9,963 bases of DNA from positions 1 to 9,963 of the forward strand of contig JAUSKK010000023.1 in NCBI GenBank assembly GCA_030649345.1, written 5' to 3'. Positions within the stretch are counted from its first letter, which is position 1. The number at the start of each line of letters is the position of its first letter. This document shows positions 512 through 9,962 of this stretch, one piece after another. Position numbers and translations under genes: made by a program. The notes under the pieces are model-generated. The model did not search any database. It saw nothing but the letters and a program-made list of their open reading frames with translations, and was not told the origin of the DNA. The stretch comes from Candidatus Iainarchaeum sp. (lineage in GTDB: Archaea; Iainarchaeota; Iainarchaeia; Iainarchaeales; 0-14-0-20-34-12).

Positions 512-3376
512 ATGTCAAAACAATTAGGAGTATATTCTTTACTTCAAGAACAAGAAGTCTTGGCTTATTGGGCTGCAAACAAAATTCCAGAAAAAGTACG
601 CACTGCCAATCATTCTTCTAAACAAAAATATTATTTCATGGACGGCCCGCCGTATGCAACTGGTTCTATTCATATGGGTACTGCTTTGAATAAAACATTA
701 AAAGATGTAGCCATTCGTTCGCGCAGAATGCAAGGCTTTCATGTATTTGACCGGCCTGGATATGATACGCATGGTGTTCCAATTGAACACAAAGTCGAAC
801 AATTATTGGGGTTTAATTCTAAAAAAGACATTGAAGGATTTGGTGTAGGAAATTTTGTTCAAAAATGCAAAGATTTTGCAACCCAACATATTGACACCAT
901 GAATGCAGAATTCAATGACTTGGGTGTCTGGATGGATTGGGAAAATCCATATTTGACTTTAAGTCCAGATTATATTGAAGCTATTTGGTATACTTTCAAA
1001 AAAGCAGACGAAAAAGGTTTATTGTATTTAGGCTCATATCCAATTCATGCATGCATGCGCTGCGAAACCGCTGTTGCCTTTAATGAAATTGAATACGAAA
1101 AACAAACGGATAATGCAGTGTATGTAAAATTTCCTTTAGTGAATGAAAAAAATACTTTTTTAGTAATTTGGACAACCACTCCTTGGAGTATTCCAGGCGT
1201 AATGGGAATCATGGCCAATCCAAAACTAGATTATGTCAAAGTTCAAGTTGGAAACGAAGTATGGATTTTAGCTAAAGCACGTTTGGAAAATTTAATGAAC
1301 CATATCAAAGTTGAACACACAATATTGGAAACTTTTAAAGGAAAAACTCTAGAAAATATTCCTTTAATGAATCCAATTAGCAAATTTTTGAATTTTAAAA
1401 AAGAAGATTTAATGAATGCGTATCGTGTTGTCTTGACTGAGCGTTATGTTAGTGCAGATGATGGAACTGGTTTGGTTACTTGTGCTCCAGGTCATGGAAA
1501 AGAAGACTATTCTGTTGGAAAAGAAAATGATTTGCCGATTGTGTGTCCTGTGGGCTTGAATGGTTTAATGACTGCAGAGGCTGGAAAATATCAAGGAAAG
1601 CAAGCCAGAATTGTGGATGCTGAAATTGTTGCAGATTTAAAAGAACTGAATGCTTTGGTTGCTGAAGAAAAATATACGCACGATTATCCGAAATGCTGGC
1701 GGTGTAAGACTGCGTTGATTTTGATTACTGCTCCGCAATGGTTTTTTAATATTAAAAAAATTCAACCCAAATTGTTAAGTGAAAATGAAACTGTTAATTG
1801 GAAACCAGAATGGATGAAGGATCGAATGAGAAATTGGCTGCAATCTTTGGGAGACTGGCCTGTTTCCAGAAAGCGTTATTGGGGTGCTCCTTTGCCTATT
1901 TGGGTTTGTGATTCTTGTAAATCTCAGAAAGTGATTGGTTCAATTGAAGAATTAAAAAAAGAAACTGGTTTGAAAGAAATTAAAGATATTCACAAGCCAT
2001 GGATTGATTCCGTGTTTTTGAAATGCAAATGTTCTGGCAAAATGACTCGTGTCCCTGAAGTCTTGGATGTCTGGTTTGATTCCGGTGTTTCCAGCTGGGG
2101 TGCTTTAATGTATCCTCAGTCTGAAAAATTATGGAAAGACTTTTGGCCAGCTGATTTTAATGTAGAAGGAACTGATCAAGTTCGTGGCTGGTGGAATTCG
2201 CAAATGATTACCAGTGTCATTACTTTTGATTCCAAGCCTTTCAAGAATGTAATGACGCATGGAATGGTTTTAGATTTAGGCAAAAAAAAGATGTCTAAAT
2301 CGAAAGGAAATGTAATTCAGCCCAAAGAAGTGATTGAAAAATATAACCGTGATTATTTGCGGTATTATTTTGTGAAAGAATCTCAAGGTACGGACATTGT
2401 GTTTGATTGGAAAATGTTTGAAGACGTCAAGCGTTTCTTTAATACTTTAAGCAATTCTTTGAATTATGCTGCTTTGTATTTGGATTTCTCGTTTACAGAA
2501 CACGAGCCCACAATCACTGCAAAATTGCAAACCGAAGATCAATGGCTTTTGAGTAGACTTACTTCAGTTACTGAAAAAGTTTTGCAAAGTTATAATTCGT
2601 ATACTTTTTTTGAAGGAATGATTGTTTTGGAAAAATTTGTAGTAGAAGATTTGTCTCGGACATACATTAAATTAATTCGCGATCGTGTAAATTCAAATTC
2701 TCGAGAAGCTGTTCAGCAAACTTTGAGTTATGTTTTAAATTCAGTGTTCCGTTTATTGTCTCCAGTCACTCCTCATTTGACTGAATATGCATTTATCCAA
2801 TTAAGAACTCCGAAAGCTAAAGAAAGTATTCATTTGCTTTCTTTGCCTCAGGTCAATTCAAAATTTTTAAATCCTGAATTGGAACAAGAATTTGCTTTAA
2901 TGTTGTCTTTAACTCAGGCTTTTTTGAGTGCCCGCGAAGAAGCCAAGCTTAGATTGCGCTGGCCTTTGGAATGCATTGCAGTTGAAAGTACTCAAGAATT
3001 TTCTTTAAAGCATACGCAAGAATTATTGGCTCGGGCAGTGAATGTGAAAAAAATAATTATAGGAAAACCTTCTTTTGTAAAACCATTTGTGAAAATGCAG
3101 GAACAATTTACTTTGTCTTTGGAAACTTTTGCATCACCTGAATTAGAAAATGAATGGGAATTTCGAGAACTGGTTAGACTTGTTCAAGATCAAAGAAAAC
3201 AAGCCAAATTAATTCCAGGTCAAGTGGTTGAATTAGAACTTTCGTGCAGTGATTCAAATTTTTTGAAAACTTTCGGAAAACAATTGGAACAAGAAACCAG
3301 CACAAAAATTGTTTCTGGAAAAGGCGAACAAACTTTGTTGTTAAAGAAAAGTTTTTATTATAAATTAAAAGTTTAA
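512..3376 (+). CDS. ileS: Isoleucine--tRNA ligase (class Ia aminoacyl-tRNA synthetase, archaeal type)
   Basis: 'GPPYATGSIHMGTALNK' is the HIGH-type motif (His codon at 671-673) in the archaeal IleRS form (PPYxxGxIHxGTAxNK). KMSKS is at 2288-2302. 'WTTTPWSIPG' is the CP1 editing-domain signature. 'DWPVSRKRYWGAPLPIW' and CxxC pairs (CMRC, CWRC, CDSC) are also present. 954 aa. Confidence 0.95.
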   Translation: MSKQLGVYSLLQEQEVLAYWAANKIPEKVRTANHSSKQKYYFMDGPPYATGSIHMGTALNKTLKDVAIRSRRMQGFHVFDRPGYDTHGVPIEHKVEQLLGFNSKKDIEGFGVGNFVQKCKDFATQHIDTMNAEFNDLGVWMDWENPYLTLSPDYIEAIWYTFKKADEKGLLYLGSYPIHACMRCETAVAFNEIEYEKQTDNAVYVKFPLVNEKNTFLVIWTTTPWSIPGVMGIMANPKLDYVKVQVGNEVWILAKARLENLMNHIKVEHTILETFKGKTLENIPLMNPISKFLNFKKEDLMNAYRVVLTERYVSADDGTGLVTCAPGHGKEDYSVGKENDLPIVCPVGLNGLMTAEAGKYQGKQARIVDAEIVADLKELNALVAEEKYTHDYPKCWRCKTALILITAPQWFFNIKKIQPKLLSENETVNWKPEWMKDRMRNWLQSLGDWPVSRKRYWGAPLPIWVCDSCKSQKVIGSIEELKKETGLKEIKDIHKPWIDSVFLKCKCSGKMTRVPEVLDVWFDSGVSSWGALMYPQSEKLWKDFWPADFNVEGTDQVRGWWNSQMITSVITFDSKPFKNVMTHGMVLDLGKKKMSKSKGNVIQPKEVIEKYNRDYLRYYFVKESQGTDIVFDWKMFEDVKRFFNTLSNSLNYAALYLDFSFTEHEPTITAKLQTEDQWLLSRLTSVTEKVLQSYNSYTFFEGMIVLEKFVVEDLSRTYIKLIRDRVNSNSREAVQQTLSYVLNSVFRLLSPVTPHLTEYAFIQLRTPKAKESIHLLSLPQVNSKFLNPELEQEFALMLSLTQAFLSAREEAKLRLRWPLECIAVESTQEFSLKHTQELLARAVNVKKIIIGKPSFVKPFVKMQEQFTLSLETFASPELENEWEFRELVRLVQDQRKQAKLIPGQVVELELSCSDSNFLKTFGKQLEQETSTKIVSGKGEQTLLLKKSFYYKLKV

Positions 3377-3392
3377 TAATTGATGGTTTTGA

Positions 3393-4538
3393 ATGAATTC
3401 TAAAATTTTAACTGCCTTAGTTGTAATCTTGATGCTGTCTTTGGGTTGTGTGAATTCTGCTCAAGAAACTGCTGAAACTCAATCACGTGAACAAAATCCG
3501 TTGTTTCATACTGTTCCAGAAGGAAGTGCTTGTGTGGATGCCCGCGGTGATTGTTTGCCTGGTTTAACTTGTGTAAATGCTGTTTGTCAAAAACCAGACA
3601 ATGTGCAAACTGCAGGGCCTATAGGGACATCATCTAACCAAGAACGATGTCGTCAAAATCAATTCAAGATGGCTTTTGTTTTGGTTGCAGATAATAATCA
3701 ACAAATAACTCCGGAAAGAATGCAAAGATTGCAAGCAATCAAAGACGTATTTCCGGAAACATTCAGTGCAGCTACATTCAACTTAGCTAGTGTGGATACT
3801 GCATATCCAATTGTTACAATCACTGGAGATCAATTAGATGATCGTGCTCCAGAAACAATTGCTAAAAAATTTTATGAATCCAATCCAGATGATTTTGATT
3901 TTATTTCAATTTTTCCAGCAGCTCCTGAATTCAGCAATCTTGCAACTTCAAATTCTCAAGTACAAAGTTTTATACAAGGGCTGGGTAAGTCTCTATTTAA
4001 TCGAAGTTCTCAGTTTGGAAGCAGCGGAAAACTTTTAAGTGTTGGATATTATCGCGATTCTCTAAGTGTTCCAACCACAGAGTCTTCAGCAGTACAAATA
4101 CTTCACGAAGCAGGACATCAATGGTGCTGTTATGTGGGTGAAAGATTTTCAACAGATCCAGCTGTACAATTAGGAATTTTGGATGATATTGAAATTCATT
4201 TTTATTCCGGGTTAAGTTCTCCGTATTCTTGCGGAGCTATTTATGGGCCAAGTTATTGGATGCCGAATGCCGATGGTACATACAATCAAAGTAAAGAATG
4301 TGCTGAATCTAGAAAATACCATCCTTTTACATTATACTTAATGGGATTATACACTAGAGAAAATTATGATTTTGATAAAAAATTTCAATTATTGAATGCA
4401 ACTTATAATGACCAAGCAGTTCCTTTCAAAGAAATAAGTATTAATGACATTATTGCAGTTGAAGGAGAACGAACTTGTGTGAATGTCGTGCCTGAAACTT
4501 CTGTAGGTCCAACTGTATCTACTTTTATTGCAGATTAA
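3393..4538 (+). CDS. Secreted or lipid-anchored protein with an N-terminal 4-Cys module and an HExxH motif; putative zinc metallopeptidase-like protein
   Basis: Signal peptide 'MNSKILTALVVILMLSLGCVNSA' with a lipobox-like LGC. C-x6-C-x5-C-x4-C module (Cys codons 3531-3587). 'LHEAGHQWCCY' HExxH at 4104-4118. Starts 16 nt after the ileS stop. Confidence 0.8.
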   Translation: MNSKILTALVVILMLSLGCVNSAQETAETQSREQNPLFHTVPEGSACVDARGDCLPGLTCVNAVCQKPDNVQTAGPIGTSSNQERCRQNQFKMAFVLVADNNQQITPERMQRLQAIKDVFPETFSAATFNLASVDTAYPIVTITGDQLDDRAPETIAKKFYESNPDDFDFISIFPAAPEFSNLATSNSQVQSFIQGLGKSLFNRSSQFGSSGKLLSVGYYRDSLSVPTTESSAVQILHEAGHQWCCYVGERFSTDPAVQLGILDDIEIHFYSGLSSPYSCGAIYGPSYWMPNADGTYNQSKECAESRKYHPFTLYLMGLYTRENYDFDKKFQLLNATYNDQAVPFKEISINDIIAVEGERTCVNVVPETSVGPTVSTFIAD

Positions 4539-5325: not shown

Positions 5326-5502
5326 TTAAAGCCCAGTTGCTTTAAGCCAAATAATAGCTCCGCAGAAAATAACTGCTAAAACCAATATGAATATAGGAGA
5401 TAGTTTTAAGTTGGTTTTATCTGAATCGCTGAATCGCATGATTCCAATAGCACTGCTGGGTCCAGAGGTTCCAGATGACTTTGATTTGTTTAATTTAACC
5501 AT
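5326..5502 (-). CDS. secG: Preprotein translocase subunit Sec61-beta (archaeal SecG)
   Basis: From the internal ATG at 5502: 'MVKLNKSKSSGTSGPSSAIGIMRFSD...LSPIFILVLAVIFCGAIIWL'. This is the characteristic 'SSAGLMRY/F' motif plus a C-terminal tail-anchor TM. The ORF-track start at 5556 adds 18 unlikely residues. Confidence 0.85.
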   Translation of the reverse strand: MVKLNKSKSSGTSGPSSAIGIMRFSDSDKTNLKLSPIFILVLAVIFCGAIIWLKATGL

Positions 5503-5510
5503 TTGATTAC

Positions 5511-5518
5511 CTATATAG
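5511..5518. promoter_or_regulatory. Palindromic TATA-like box (CTATATAG) in the divergent secG / 5569 intergenic region
   Basis: Lies about 50 nt upstream of ATG 5569. That ATG has an AAAGGT SD-like element at 5556-5560. Which strand the box serves is not resolvable. Confidence 0.3.
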
Positions 5519-5568
5519 TTATTAATTCTAAATGAATTTAAATTAGTAAGATACAAAGGTTTTATGAT

Positions 5569-6609
5569 ATGGCCGAAAGCACTAAAATGATTTTAACTCG
5601 ATTGTTTGTTTTGTTTATTTTAATGTTTGGCTTGTTATTGGTTTTAACTTGGACCAATACAATCAAATGCAAGTCTTTGTTAGGTTGGTGTGATATTTAT
5701 TATTCTATGAAAGGCCTTCCCAAGACAGCCATAGTGTATGGCGTAGATGGTTTAGGAGATCCTTTTTTGCTACAAATTTTGTTAGAATCTAGAATAGATG
5801 GAGTTGGAATCAAGCCTGCTTTGCTGGAATTAGATTCTTTGGCTTTAGGTAATCTCAAACAATATGAATTGGTGTATGTAACGCGTGCTCGCAGTATGTC
5901 TACGGAGAAAATGAAAATGTTTGTAGACTTTGCCAATCAAGGCGGAAAATTAATTTGGACAGGTGATGCAGGAACTTCTTTGGGTGTAGGTTATCCGTAT
6001 ACCATTCGTTCCAAGCATGATTTGGTTACAGATAAACAAAAACTAGAAGTTGAAGAAAATTATTTATTTAAAGACGAAGTAACTGGTGCTGATCAAAATA
6101 CTCCGCATGAAGTCATTAATCCTTGGGCCCGCAAATTGAATGGAAAACAAGTACGCTTAGACCAGTTATTGTCCATTACTTATGAAGATAATTATTGCAG
6201 ACTAAAAGAATGCTTTTTGAATATTGAAAATTGTTATGCTCGTATTAGCAATGTTAGTTCTGACCATCCTTTGGTTCAATCCATTCGTTCTGATTTGCCT
6301 TTTTGTTTTTTTGTAAGCTCAGATGTTAACAAAGATTTTGCAGTTGTAACTTTATTGTCTTCTCGTCCTGTGACTTCTTTAATGACTGTAAACTTTGCTG
6401 GTCCATTAATTGTTCAAGGAAAAACCTATGGGAAAAATTTGCCTTTAATTATCTCCAGTTCTAAATCTCATTTGTTTGGAACCAATATTGGAGAAAATGT
6501 TGCATACTATGCTTTGCCAGTAGAATATTTTGCCAATCCTGATTTAGTTAAAAATCATCGATACTTTGATTTAGTTCAAAATTCTTATTTAGGAATGATT
6601 TATGGTTAG
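5569..6609 (+). CDS. Membrane-anchored hypothetical protein; paralogue of 7154-8002; possible class-I glutamine-amidotransferase-like / ThuA / DUF4350-like fold
   Basis: N-terminal signal anchor 'ILTRLFVLFILMFGLLLVLTW'. Motifs 'TAIVYG', 'LKQYELVYV', 'FVDFANQGGKLIWTGDAG' (5938-5973) and 'DHPLVQSI' (6262-) are collinear with the equivalent motifs in 7154-8002. Confidence 0.85.
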   Translation: MAESTKMILTRLFVLFILMFGLLLVLTWTNTIKCKSLLGWCDIYYSMKGLPKTAIVYGVDGLGDPFLLQILLESRIDGVGIKPALLELDSLALGNLKQYELVYVTRARSMSTEKMKMFVDFANQGGKLIWTGDAGTSLGVGYPYTIRSKHDLVTDKQKLEVEENYLFKDEVTGADQNTPHEVINPWARKLNGKQVRLDQLLSITYEDNYCRLKECFLNIENCYARISNVSSDHPLVQSIRSDLPFCFFVSSDVNKDFAVVTLLSSRPVTSLMTVNFAGPLIVQGKTYGKNLPLIISSSKSHLFGTNIGENVAYYALPVEYFANPDLVKNHRYFDLVQNSYLGMIYG

Positions 6610-6614
6610 GTGAT
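6608..6614 (+). promoter_or_regulatory. Shine-Dalgarno (AGGTGAT) for the 6620 CDS, overlapping the stop of the upstream CDS
   Basis: The TAG stop at 6607-6609 is embedded in 'TAGGTGAT'. There is a 5-6 nt spacer to ATG 6620. Confidence 0.6.
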
Positions 6615-6619
6615 GTGAA

Positions 6620-7027
6620 ATGAAAAAACCAGTTACTCGAAAAATTGCTCCAGTTCAAAGAAAAAAACCAGTTAATAATCGCAGAGTTCATGGCGGTAAT
6701 TTAAGCCTTAGATTAACTAGATCAAGTTCAAAATCCGGTGAAGTGTATTCTGCTAATCCATATTATACTGCTGTAAAATCAACGCGTTCTGGCAGTCGCA
6801 TATTTCAAGAAGGTTCAGCTAGACGTTTAAGTGATCGCAGATCATTTTTGAAGTTTTTGCGTTCTCATAATTTGAAATTAGATTCTTTGGGCCATTTGAG
6901 ATTTATTAAAGCCACGCGAAGCAATGCAGCGAATACTGTTTTTCGACCAGCAAATGACAAGCATAATGTTTTTATAAAACTGCAAGATTGGCTGCAAAGA
7001 TATGGTCCAAAAAAGCAAAAAAAGTAA
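6620..7027 (+). CDS. Very basic small hypothetical protein (135 aa, Arg/Lys/Ser-rich)
   Basis: Strong SD. Open frame with A/T third positions. N-terminal 'APVQRKKPVNNRRVH' motif is shared with two other ORFs in the window. No recognisable family. Confidence 0.7.
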   Translation: MKKPVTRKIAPVQRKKPVNNRRVHGGNLSLRLTRSSSKSGEVYSANPYYTAVKSTRSGSRIFQEGSARRLSDRRSFLKFLRSHNLKLDSLGHLRFIKATRSNAANTVFRPANDKHNVFIKLQDWLQRYGPKKQKK

Positions 7028-7153
7028 AGCTTTTAAATAACTAAAGCTTATAATTGTCATTAATAGTAGTATATGGCAGGCAATCCAAAAGAATAAAAAG
7101 GAGTGCAACCATATAATATTAACAGATTAATTGAAAAAAATGAATAAATACGT

Positions 7154-8002
7154 GTGGTGATGTTTTTGGCTTATCCTGAAGAAGAAGGTGCTGATTTGGG
7201 TCCTGAACCTAGTTTCTCTGGCGGTTACGGCGGAGGAGGAATGGGAATCCATTTAGAAGGTTTAATTCCTTTAATTTTAATTGTAGTGATTGCGGCAGTT
7301 GCTGGCTCTTATTTGGGTTTATGGCATATTCCATTTATTTCTCAAAACCAACCTTTGCAAGTTTTAGTGATTGGTGAACCTTCTTTGCAAACTAGAGTTG
7401 TAATGGATGAAGCTAAAGATTTATTGAATTATAGAGTTCGAAGCGGTGAAAGTTTACGCGCAAATCCAAGAGAACAATTAGCTCAATATAATATTGTAAT
7501 GTTGGATCAAAGTGGAGAAGAAAATCAATGTATTCCTAGACAAGTTGGAGAAGCAATTCGAGAATTTGTTCAAAAAGGCGGTAAATTAATTACTGTTATG
7601 AATTCAGGTATTTGTAGATCTGGTAGTTTAGAAGCCATTGGATGGAAAGCAGTTATGGGCGATGTAGTGCCTGTAGATTGTGTTCCAGCTAAAAATGGCC
7701 AGCCTAGTTGTATGACTCCTTTGGTTGTACGCGGAGAAATTTGGAGACAAGACTACGATCATCCAATATTGCAAGGAATTGAAGTAATTCCTGCATTGCA
7801 AGACCAGCCTTTATTGGAATTGATAACATTTGATGTCGTACCTCAAGGTAATGAAATTGCATTTATTCAAAATGCAAGTACTCCAGAATTTTATCCTGCA
7901 ATTGTAGAAAAAAGACTGGTTTTAGGAAAAAGCCTGTACTTTAATTACGATCCAGGAGCAACGCCTGTAGTATTACAAAAAACATTTGAATACTTGAGAT
8001 AA
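7154..8002 (+). CDS. Membrane-anchored hypothetical protein; paralogue of 5569-6609 (start GTG 7154 or, more likely, ATG 7160)
   Basis: Acidic/Gly-rich N-terminus, then TM 'LIPLILIVVIAAVAGSYLGLW'. Motifs 'LQVLVIGE', 'LAQYNIVML', 'FVQKGGKLITVMNSG' (7571-) and 'DHPILQGI' (7757-). Confidence 0.85.
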   Translation: MVMFLAYPEEEGADLGPEPSFSGGYGGGGMGIHLEGLIPLILIVVIAAVAGSYLGLWHIPFISQNQPLQVLVIGEPSLQTRVVMDEAKDLLNYRVRSGESLRANPREQLAQYNIVMLDQSGEENQCIPRQVGEAIREFVQKGGKLITVMNSGICRSGSLEAIGWKAVMGDVVPVDCVPAKNGQPSCMTPLVVRGEIWRQDYDHPILQGIEVIPALQDQPLLELITFDVVPQGNEIAFIQNASTPEFYPAIVEKRLVLGKSLYFNYDPGATPVVLQKTFEYLR

Positions 8003-8013
8003 AATCTATAAAA

Positions 8014-8050
8014 AGGTAAACTTTGAGTTTACCTCTCTTTTTATTTTTTT
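8014..8050 (+). terminator. Hairpin plus oligo-T terminator
   Basis: Perfect 9-bp stem AGGTAAACT (8014-8022) / AGTTTACCT (8026-8034), followed by CTCTTTTTATTTTTTT (8035-8050). Confidence 0.7.
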
Positions 8051-8144: not shown

Positions 8145-8540
8145 ATGCAAAACTACAATGGAGGAATTGCAATGGAAGAAGAATACACAGATAACTCAGA
8201 AGGATATCCAGATAATGCTGGTGAAAACACAGATAACTCTAGTGAAGAAAGTTTAGGTTTTTCCGAAAACACTGTTTTTATTGGAAAAAAGCCTACCATG
8301 GCTTACGTGTTTGCTGTCATGACTCAGTTTGAAAAAGATGCAGCCGAAGTCATGTTAAAGGCTCGCGGTAAATCAATTTCTAAAGCCGTAGATGTAACAG
8401 AGATCGTGAAAAACAAATTTCCAGACAAAGTGGAAGTTACAGGCATTCAAACTTCAACCGAAGAAATGCAAAGCGAAGACGGAAAAAGCTTAAGAGTTTC
8501 AGCTATTGAAGTACGAATTGCTAGAAAAGACGGATCCTAA
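8145..8540 (+). CDS. albA: DNA/RNA-binding protein Alba with an acidic N-terminal extension (likely true start ATG 8172)
   Basis: 'VFIGKKPTMAYVFAVMTQF...VMLKARGKSISKAVDVTEIVKNKF...LRVSAIEVRIARK' is collinear with Sso10b/Alba ('VLIGKKPVMNYV...[22 protein letters not shown]...'). Confidence 0.9.
   Translation: MQNYNGGIAMEEEYTDNSEGYPDNAGENTDNSSEESLGFSENTVFIGKKPTMAYVFAVMTQFEKDAAEVMLKARGKSISKAVDVTEIVKNKFPDKVEVTGIQTSTEEMQSEDGKSLRVSAIEVRIARKDGS
8160..8164 (+). promoter_or_regulatory. Shine-Dalgarno GGAGG for the internal ATG 8172 of alba
   Basis: GGAGG lies 7 nt upstream of ATG 8172-8174. No comparable site precedes ATG 8145. Confidence 0.55.
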
Positions 8541-9416: not shown

Positions 9417-9962
9417 ATGCCTGGAATGCGTTTTCGTCCACAGCGTCATGGTGCTGTTGCCGGTGCTTTCGGTAAAAATAAAGGTCCTGTTCGAAAGCCA
9501 GTAAAATCTGAGCCTGTAGCTGGTAAGCCTTCGGCTAAATCTGTTGTTCGTTCTAGTGCTTCTCAACCCAGAGTTCATATGCCTGCGTTTTTAGTGCATA
9601 ATGCTTCTCGTGGTTTATTGGGTCGTGCTTCTGCTTTAGCTCGAAATCCTAAAGTTAAAGTTTTATTTGAAGGAAATGAAAAACAGGTAAAAATGGAAAT
9701 AACTTTGCGTGATGGTCCCGGGAAAGTTTCTATGAGTTTTACTCCTGAATCAAGTTCTGGAAATATGGTTGTGCCAGCTTCTTTGAAAATGGCAGTTGAA
9801 TTAAATGGCCAAAAAAGATCTGTTACTTTTCCAATTTCTAAATCCAATTTTGGTGGTGCTTTTGCTAAAGCTTTAAGGCAAACAGTTGAAATGGGTGAAC
9901 GAATGACAACCTATGACAGACCTGGTCGATTGCTAACTAGTTTCATTTTTCCTAAAGCTTAA
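9417..9962 (+). CDS. Basic hypothetical protein (181 aa): disordered Arg/Lys/Pro/Ser-rich N-terminus plus a C-terminal domain of about 110 aa
   Basis: Very strong T/A-ending codon bias (GCT, GGT, CGT, CCT, TCT). TAA stop at 9960-9962. The antisense ORFs are shadows. No recognisable family. Confidence 0.7.
   Translation: MPGMRFRPQRHGAVAGAFGKNKGPVRKPVKSEPVAGKPSAKSVVRSSASQPRVHMPAFLVHNASRGLLGRASALARNPKVKVLFEGNEKQVKMEITLRDGPGKVSMSFTPESSSGNMVVPASLKMAVELNGQKRSVTFPISKSNFGGAFAKALRQTVEMGERMTTYDRPGRLLTSFIFPKA

Follow-up and report, generated by a model that had tools for sequence, protein, structure and literature searches.

The fold of the class-I glutamine amidotransferases (GATases; Glutaminase_I clan) is also found in families that are not amidotransferases. 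ThuA-like proteins (PF06283; PDB entries 1t0b, 4jqs and 4e5v) have the fold without a catalytic Cys, and domain B of the family 42 glycoside hydrolases (GH42; PF08532, the 'trimerisation domain') and the second domain of GlmA (PF22369) are non-catalytic GATase-like domains that serve for oligomer contacts, the GH42 domain being an oligomerisation platform. GIFT domains, present in GldG (ABC_transp_aux, PF09822), IFT52 and OST48/Wbp1, put the same fold to use as a platform for docking or, putatively, for binding sugars; the one in IFT52 bridges IFT-B subcomplexes. Here we describe two genes, named A and C, whose products are predicted to have this fold. They lie on a 9,963 bp contig of Candidatus Iainarchaeum sp. 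(accession: JAUSKK010000023.1, assembly GCA_030649345.1), referred to as the window in its full length, which has ~34% GC and in which a third gene, B, separates them. The source metagenome-assembled genome (MAG) is listed by NCBI as 'Candidatus Diapherotrites archaeon', where A and B carry the tags Q7S92_03285 and Q7S92_03290; a preliminary description of this DNA, made from the sequence alone, had supposed a small-genome archaeal host, and the host is indeed a DPANN archaeon.

The carbohydrate-binding module (CBM) of Agd3 is ThuA/GATase1-like, has lost the catalytic triad and has conserved aromatic residues instead (PMC7229062), and for the ThuA-like domain of PelA a role in binding either carbohydrate or a partner has been proposed (PMC12022489). 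GIFT domains have been found in IFT52 and in Wbp1, that of Wbp1 lying in the lumen (PMC7226087). In the literature, no paper was found that joins ThuA-like or GATase-like proteins to DPANN, Diapherotrites or Iainarchaeota. This class of fold is well known, also in roles without catalysis, and the pair does not constitute a system of a new kind; what is new is the stand-alone N-terminal anchor, the pairing or tripling of the paralogues, their tight restriction to one phylum and their fixed place beside the genes for Sec61beta and Alba. We favour, with moderate confidence, the reading that A and C form a phylum-restricted, extracytoplasmic, non-amidotransferase module, which would be hetero-oligomeric and would act in docking or in glycan binding.

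Sequence relationship of A and C

The two genes are as follows:

5569..6609, + strand: paralogue A, 346 aa; a transmembrane (TM) anchor, then a predicted ThuA/GH42-B/GIFT-like ectodomain
7160..8002, + strand: paralogue C, 280 aa from the ATG at 7160; its open reading frame (ORF) opens at the GTG at 7154 (282 aa), and the TTG at 7166 is a possible start

Translation of C probably begins at ATG 7160 or TTG 7166 rather than at GTG 7154, because its homologues begin with MYPEE or MAYPEE. The TTG is preceded by the sequence GGTGAT at a distance of 4 nt, and a protein started there would open with MAYPEEEG, as does a 68%-identical homologue (P0002). Every one of the 84 homologues of A, all from Diapherotrites/Iainarchaeota, and of the 107 homologues of C is annotated as hypothetical, and comparison of A and C with NCBIfam and PHROGs gave no meaningful match.

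BLASTP of A against C from the window returned only E=0.046 over 45 aa. Family profiles built from alignments of 52 A and 58 C sequences (110 together) were compared with hhalign, which gave a probability of 96.5% (E=7.9e-10) over 224 collinear columns at ~15% identity; the alignment begins at the TM helix of both proteins and reaches their C-terminal strands, AYYA.PPE in A and YFNYDP in C. This profile–profile score puts the relationship far beyond chance and, judged by it, A and C are genuine, very old paralogues. The preliminary description had arrived at a common architecture from four pairs of short motifs, all of which are present and in register in the profile alignment, and its coordinates for A, B and C were also confirmed.

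It had further pointed to conservation of the GGKLI block at the nucleotide level. The two 15-nt blocks, GGCGGAAAATTAATT (5941-5955) and GGCGGTAAATTAATT (7577-7591), are present, differ by one base and are the sole two matches in the window, but they add no weight to the paralogy. Their likeness is a by-product of codon usage, because identical pentapeptides share codons in an AT-biased genome; recent exchange was considered as its cause and rejected, since codon usage suffices.

Across the alignments, the residues W130, D133, W186, R188, Y313 and E319 were invariant in A and Q119, S151, W164, C176, C186, E252, N264 and Y265 in C. The conserved cysteines form the pairs C34/C41 and C210/C215 in A and C176/C186 in C.

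Structural models and comparison with known families

AlphaFold2 (AF2) models were made with the family alignments as input. The predicted local distance difference test (pLDDT) and predicted template-modelling (pTM) scores were 93.0 and 0.90 for A and 89.4 and 0.79 for C, and each model consisted of an N-terminal helix and an alpha/beta domain. An insert in A at residues ~138-165, which is lineage-specific, was modelled with low confidence.

When the models were searched against the PDB with Foldseek, A and C shared one structural neighbourhood among the best 50 matches (probability 1.00). The E-values of the 50 matches listed ran from 4.9e-9 (C) and 1.4e-7 (A) to about 1e-4, and the template-modelling (TM) scores by target were 0.47-0.63 for single-domain chains. 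The matches of C included ThuA-like 1t0b (E=4.9e-9, TM-score 0.55 by target), GH42 domain B (~4e-7) and the GATase 2a9v (6.6e-6); those of A included 5xb7 (1.4e-7), ThuA-like 4jqs (1.5e-7, TM-score 0.60) and 4e5v (~1e-7). A also matched the N-terminal GIFT domain of IFT52 (5fms, E=1.6e-5, TM-score 0.59 by target; also 5fmr), for which C had no match among the 50 listed. Class-I GATases (2a9v, 6qur, 3d54) were among the matches as well.

Neither A nor C of the window reached a Pfam or NCBIfam threshold, and the Pfam matches below threshold all fell in the GATase1-like clan. Among the 58 C sequences these were Glyco_hydro_42M (33/58), ThuA (32/58) and GATase1_like (11/58), and among the 52 A sequences ABC_transp_aux (28/52), Glyco_hydro_42M (20/52), GLMA_2nd (15/52) and ThuA (9/52); sporadic members matched DUF2194, DUF4350, DUF7408 and IFT52_GIFT, the last in one C member of 58. 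Against ThuA PF06283 (cut-off 33.4 bits), C of the window scored 20.4 bits (E=6.9e-4) and A had no match at E<=1; the best members of the families reached E=2.9e-6 (C) and 1.6e-5 (A). All but a few relatives also stay under this cut-off, and three (P0043, P0055 and P0121) have a precomputed PF06283 match. C scored 11.1 bits against Glyco_hydro_42M PF08532 (cut-off 25.8 bits), and A scored 16.1 bits, over residues 97-135 only, against ABC_transp_aux PF09822 (cut-off 34.7 bits), both of which lie under the cut-off. No glycosidase domain was found in A or C of the window, either by Pfam or in the AF2 models.

With C, a sequence-profile search of the PDB reached GH42 only marginally (E 0.5-1.4), and with A it yielded nothing but noise. 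The search aligned the GGKLivv.nSGI..GW segment of C with the motif GGtLvmtyiSGI..GW of the non-catalytic GH42 domain B.

On these models A and C are predicted to have the class-I GATase-like fold in the non-amidotransferase form of ThuA, GH42 domain B and GIFT. The preliminary description had guessed at a GATase1-like fold of the ThuA, DUF4350 or ABC-auxiliary type; the guess was right, because the two Foldseek neighbourhoods and the Pfam matches, which stay within the clan, agree with it.

The motif logic of the ThuA-like proteins is like that of A and C, with a strand, a 'GG-x-L-hydrophobic strand' and a later 'HP-hydrophobic-x-x-G'. The solved ThuA-like chains have 240-280 residues, approximately the domain alone, to which an N-terminal TM anchor is added in A and C; unlike ThuA-like proteins, they also have conserved Cys pairs, occur as an adjacent paralogue pair and are found in a single archaeal phylum. 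GH42 domain B comes closest at the sequence level, by the motif aligned with C above, and gave many Foldseek matches at E ~1e-7 to 1e-5, but it is internal to a glycosidase of ~680 aa, whereas the domain of A and C would form an ectodomain by itself, carried by a TM anchor. The GIFT domains of GldG and Wbp1 lie on the non-cytoplasmic side, as is predicted for A and C. However, in GldG there are two TM helices and in Wbp1 the helix is C-terminal, in contrast to the single N-terminal anchor of A and C, and there are no conserved ABC genes beside A, the only one seen being coincidental and in a single genome (L002/L003, one locus in two assemblies). The Agd3 CBM and the PelA domain are extracytoplasmic and triad-less and have conserved aromatics at their surface for polysaccharide binding, with which the invariant Trp and Tyr residues of A (W130, W186, Y313) and C (W164, Y265) may be compared; these two domains are fused to a deacetylase or hydrolase of exopolysaccharide machines, whereas A and C have no fused or adjacent catalytic partner.

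A large secreted variant of C (P0209, 778 aa) has a weak match to DUF7407 at residues 452-522 and the C domain at 552-778, and DUF7408 was weakly matched by five members of the C family. This suggests that the C domain is distantly linked to an architecture of two domains that Pfam lists as uncharacterised.

Catalytic residues

The nucleophile elbow reads W-T-G-D-A-G in A, with D133 in 52/52 sequences and W130 invariant, and N/D-S-G-I in C, with S151 in 58/58. The elbow Cys (G-x-C-x-G) was absent from all 110 aligned sequences. The His of the 'HP' motif is retained in 54/58 members of C (H203) and its equivalent in 32/52 members of A; the His-x-Glu pair of the triad was not found, C having D-H-P-I with no Glu at His+2. 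Because the elbow Cys is absent in every member, A and C are judged not to be amidotransferases. The Cys-His-Glu triad had been named in the preliminary description as the test of its non-catalytic scaffold, and the loss of the Cys and of the Glu at His+2 is in keeping with that proposal.

Alternatively, C and maybe the pair could be an extracytoplasmic enzyme, either a Ser-His-Glu hydrolase like those of peptidase family S51 (PepE, cyanophycinase), which have this activity on a GATase1-like fold, or a ThuA-type sugar processor, with A as a dead partner. S151 of C stands after the central strand at the place where GATases have their Cys and is accompanied by H203 and by E252 (58/58), the frequent loss of the His in A together with its elbow Asp resembles an enzyme/pseudoenzyme pattern, and the best structural match of C is a ThuA-like protein. 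Nevertheless, the S-G-I of C also occurs in the non-catalytic GH42 domain B and its elbow is without the small-x-nucleophile-x-small signature. No match to Peptidase_S51 (PF03575) was found at E<=0.1 in the 58 C members, and no substrate-related genes were seen in the neighbourhoods examined. We consider an enzymatic role unlikely.

Membrane topology

Each paralogue has one hydrophobic N-terminal helix, as the preliminary description had stated. In A it covers residues ~4-34 by hydropathy and 3-28 in the AF2 model, and in C residues ~27-62 by hydropathy and 37-53 in the model (282-aa numbering). The flanks of this helix show a positive-inside bias, K+R being richer on the N-terminal than on the C-terminal flank in 36 members of A versus 3 and in 31 members of C versus 3. 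Additionally, an exhaustive HMMER scan revealed variants of the C domain (P0199, P0208, P0209, P0216, P0218 and P0219) in which the TM anchor is replaced by a lipobox-type signal peptide (…LLSGC, …LFGC or …LLLGC) and extra N-terminal domains are present; this lipoprotein-type architecture implies that the domain is exported. The invariant Cys pairs of A and C are compatible with extracytoplasmic disulfides. It is therefore a well supported inference from the bias, the lipobox variants and the Cys pairs, the first two of which also speak for the display outside the membrane proposed earlier, that A and C are type-II single-pass proteins with the N-terminal tail inside, one TM helix and the domain outside the cell.

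The N-tail of C-type proteins is acidic and contains Tyr (MYPEE…), with a mean of 4.2 D+E vs 1.9 K+R. It leads into the motif E-G-L-I-P (residues 35-39) at the start of the TM helix, of which E35 and P39 are each conserved in 54/58 and G36 in 55/58 members, and similar segments (FEMTIPVLLL, FEGLIPILIL) are present in the distant tier. The motif is more conserved than a plain anchor would need, which hints at specific intramembrane contacts. A class-III (pilin-type) signal was considered for E-G-L-I-P and rejected by inspection, because the Pro at +3 and the acidic leader of 25-35 aa do not fit the pattern of such signals.

Distribution and conserved gene block

Of 1.84 billion cluster representatives, the C profile matched only 216 at E<=1e-3, and 64 of these at E<=1e-30. 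As far as the profile reaches, the superfamily is very narrow, being confined to Iainarchaeota/Diapherotrites and to a small number of uncultured archaea related to them. The gene neighbourhoods were surveyed with one genome per GTDB species, in which 114 A-encoding stretches were found and 80 kept; all 80 came from Iainarchaeota/Diapherotrites-type MAGs or unclassified archaea. The genes that accompany A and C in the window are:

512..3376, + strand: IleRS (isoleucyl-tRNA synthetase; TIGR00392 ileS E=1.5e-253, above cut-off), which bounds the synteny block on the upstream side
5329..5502, - strand: Sec61beta, divergent from A (PF03911 E=4.4e-8, above cut-off)
5503..5568, no strand: divergent spacer between Sec61beta and A, 66 nt, AT-rich, with a TATA-like TTTAAATT at 5537-5544, ~24 nt before the ATG of A
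8145..8540, + strand: Alba (PF01918 E=8.6e-19; TIGR00285 E=1e-31), a conserved neighbour downstream of C

C was found at most 2 kb downstream of A and on the same strand in 54/69 loci with enough sequence. Sec61beta was divergent and directly upstream of A in 62/78 species loci, IleRS preceded the block in 38/53 informative loci and Alba followed C in 38/51, which gives the conserved order IleRS - Sec61beta (divergent) - A - C - Alba. In the remaining 15/69 loci A and C were apart, and in at least one assembly they are at different loci (L002/L086); as such separated loci exist, the physical linkage of A and C is not obligatory. Alba still directly follows C at L086, and at L002 Sec61beta and IleRS are still ~1-2 kb downstream of A, rearranged.

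Clusters with further paralogues were found on two unclassified contigs from Logan assemblies, L084 and L085, the latter archaeal by gene content; a cluster search with ten of their proteins matched only Logan sequences. On L084 (1103-4539) the order is Sec61beta on the minus strand, an A-like gene (488 aa, A-profile E=2e-41) and two C-like genes (282 aa and 329 aa), Sec61beta being divergent and directly upstream of A here as well. On L085 (7165-8870) two C-like genes lie 5 nt apart among ribosomal-protein genes, beside L15e. The 488-aa A-like protein of L084 has a Cys-rich insert, and some superfamily proteins of L084/L085 mix the GDAG elbow of A with the C-terminal FNYDP motif of C.

The distance matrices of A and C correlated at r=0.86 (partial r=0.69), and each correlated with those of an Alba+Sec61beta control at 0.74-0.78; the two halves of A correlated with each other at 0.74. 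IleRS was dropped as a control, its distances correlating poorly with all others (r ~0.39). Since the alignment behind the control is short, this mirror-tree support for a partnership of A and C is soft.

The gene block may also be read as the relic of a tandem duplication, in which A and C would be independent and would remain adjacent through slow rearrangement of a housekeeping synteny block. The block holds the functionally unrelated IleRS and Alba, and the A-C spacers of 50-260 nt are not operon-tight and tolerate unrelated insertions; the separation of the genes at the loci above also fits such independence. Yet the duplication is very old, as the ~15% identity indicates, and adjacency is still kept between species in which identity among the A proteins is down to 30%. 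Clusters with several paralogues also appear in lineages further away, and the A and C matrices correlate better with each other than either does with the neighbouring-gene control. Independence of the two genes is in our view improbable.

The proximity of Sec61beta raises a further alternative, that A and C are accessory subunits of the Sec translocon which, like the GIFT subunit OST48/Wbp1, dock lipid-linked glycan or nascent chains. The divergent Sec61beta described above, the match of the A model to the GIFT domain of IFT52, the luminal GIFT domain of Wbp1 (PMC7226087) and the unusually conserved TM segment of C, with the specific intramembrane contacts that it suggests, are in line with such a role. 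However, no Wbp1 or OST48 chain was among the best 50 Foldseek matches, no A or C member had a DDOST_48kD (OST48) match in the Pfam scans, no AglB/STT3 gene was seen in the neighbourhoods examined, the anchor is N-terminal here and C-terminal in Wbp1, which gives the opposite topology, and the Sec61beta linkage may itself be synteny inertia. We hold this role to be very unlikely. An extended form of the idea, in which A, C and the paralogues of sister lineages would make up a so far unseen archaeal translocon-proximal surface complex, co-regulated with Sec61beta by a shared divergent promoter and docking glycans or nascent chains beside the Sec channel in the manner of OST48/Wbp1, strikes us as equally unlikely.

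Basic protein B and the A-C spacer

The spacer between A and C in the window (6610-7159) is occupied by B:

6609..6614, + strand: Shine-Dalgarno (SD)-like GGTGAT for B, which overlaps the TAG of A (6607-6609) and lies 5 nt before the ATG at 6620
6620..7027, + strand: B, 135 aa, Arg/Lys/Ser-rich, isoelectric point (pI) 11.8, with 33 K+R vs 6 D+E
7028..7159, no strand: AT-rich spacer between B and C; short repeats, both inverted and direct, lie just past the stop of B (7018-7051)

The preliminary description had noted both the extreme basicity of the 135-aa product and an SD over the upstream stop codon, and both observations stand. The codon log-likelihood of B is 0.27 per codon in frame and negative in the other five frames, the same measure being 0.35-0.46 for IleRS, A, C and Alba; its GC content at third codon positions (GC3) amounts to 0.20, and a run of 135 open codons would arise by chance at this composition with a probability of 2e-5. 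Together with its good SD, these measures indicate that B is probably a real coding gene. The B-C spacer may hold a promoter of C's own.

A search among 5.8e9 protein clusters returned only the self-match of B, and Pfam, NCBIfam and PHROG had no match to it. No B-like ORF was found by phmmer on all ORFs of 83 related loci or by BLASTP on the ORFs of other A-C spacers. On the contig of a C homologue with 89% identity, a product of at least 188 aa, in place of one of 135 aa, ends 163 nt upstream of C. Target-site duplications and terminal repeats were sought at B as insertion scars; only short AT-rich repeats were seen, and no mobile-element signature.

In 38 species the gap between A and C is at most 260 nt and contains no gene. 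Elsewhere it holds Sua5/TsaC (TIGR00057; six species), a radical-SAM/SPASM gene (two species) or one of several very basic (pI 10.2-11.8) ORFs of 100-200 aa without family, which are mutually unrelated and unlike B; insertions were recorded at L005, L007, L011-L014, L018, L023, L025, L033/L034, L045 and L064. The A-C spacer is a recurrent insertion site across Iainarchaeota.

The unit proposed in the preliminary description, with the basic protein bracketed by the two paralogues, consequently holds in part. The pair of A and C recurs in the 54/69 loci given above, but the three-gene arrangement does not, A and C being mostly adjacent and B without homologue; this was the outcome that the description itself had named as refuting it. 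As the three-gene arrangement is not conserved, the most fitting view of B is that of an insertion specific to its lineage, which lies in the A-C spacer and outside the conserved module. It would be a separate orphan, recently acquired or arisen de novo, that landed in the spacer and has its own SD just after the stop of A.

A system of three components, in which B would, for example, bind the acidic cytoplasmic tail of C, could be argued from the overlap of the SD with the stop of A, from the native codon usage of B, from the acidity of the C tail (mean D+E 4.2 vs K+R 1.9) and from the small, very basic ORFs, without relation to B, that several other lineages have between A and C. The synteny survey nevertheless refutes it for the most part: no homologue of B turned up in the clusters or related loci searched, the geneless spacers of 38 species dispense with any such component, and the other inserts resemble neither B nor each other and are in some cases housekeeping genes (Sua5/TsaC, radical SAM). 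We attach very little likelihood to it.

Other features of the window

Three further features were noted:

3393-4538, + strand: a 381-aa secreted protein without family
8014..8050, + strand: a hairpin and T-tract, a likely transcription stop after C
9417-9962, + strand: a second very basic protein (pI 11.5, 17% K+R), which runs off the contig end

The hairpin (8014-8034) has a 9-bp stem and a 3-nt loop, is followed by CTCTTTTTATTTTTTT and folds with -9.6 kcal/mol (z=-3.15); none of 200 shuffles (0/200) folds as well, which bears out the terminator reported at this place in the preliminary description.

The Sec61beta ORF as listed opens at a TTG at 5556 (76 aa), 12 nt from the ATG of A. Its probable start is the ATG at 5502, which gives 58 aa, a size typical of relatives. 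Sec61beta matched NF002318 with E=7.9e-11 and 41.5 bits, under the 55-bit cut-off of that model. The spacer 5503-5568 may have a promoter role. The Alba ORF has an acidic extension of ~40 aa ahead of the domain, the Pfam match beginning at residue 42, and an SD-like GGAGGT lies ahead of an internal ATG at 8172; the annotated start may be too early.

The 381-aa protein has an N-terminal signal or anchor, a Cys-rich N-terminal region and a HEAGH (HExxH zincin-like) motif, and had no Pfam or NCBIfam match; it may be a novel secreted metalloprotease-like protein. A 204-aa membrane protein without family and a gene for a DNA-alkylation-repair protein are also among the neighbours. The basic protein at 9417-9962 had no Pfam, NCBIfam or PHROG match and was unlike B and unlike anything in the 83 related loci, and scans of the window for tRNA and Rfam families found no RNA gene.

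Proposed role and significance of the A-C pair

In the reading that we favour, A and C would be neighbours in the membrane that together make up a hetero-oligomeric surface module, which may be stabilised by disulfides through the conserved Cys pairs. The module would serve to bind a glycan or to dock some other component of the surface or of secretion. Binding or docking is proposed because the same fold does so in GH42 domain B, IFT52, the Agd3 CBM, PelA and Wbp1.

Several findings count against this reading. With S151 invariant, H203 kept in 54/58 and E252 in 58/58 members, hydrolytic activity of C is conceivable. The genes are apart in 15/69 species loci and, at L002/L086, within at least one assembly; and the adjacency of A and C elsewhere could partly be synteny inertia, because the block also keeps the functionally unrelated IleRS and Alba. 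The Alba+Sec61beta control of the mirror-tree comparison is, besides being short, noisy.

DPANN archaea have tiny genomes and a biology that is thought to be heavily surface-dependent, and to our knowledge most of their conserved membrane proteins are without annotation. Two families so far listed as hypothetical here gain a fold, a probable topology, an evolutionary relationship and a phylum-wide gene context. The striking basic protein B, as an orphan insertion and not a system component, is removed as a misleading element. The A-C pair becomes a defined target for work on partner and glycan binding, and may serve as a lineage marker for Iainarchaeota.

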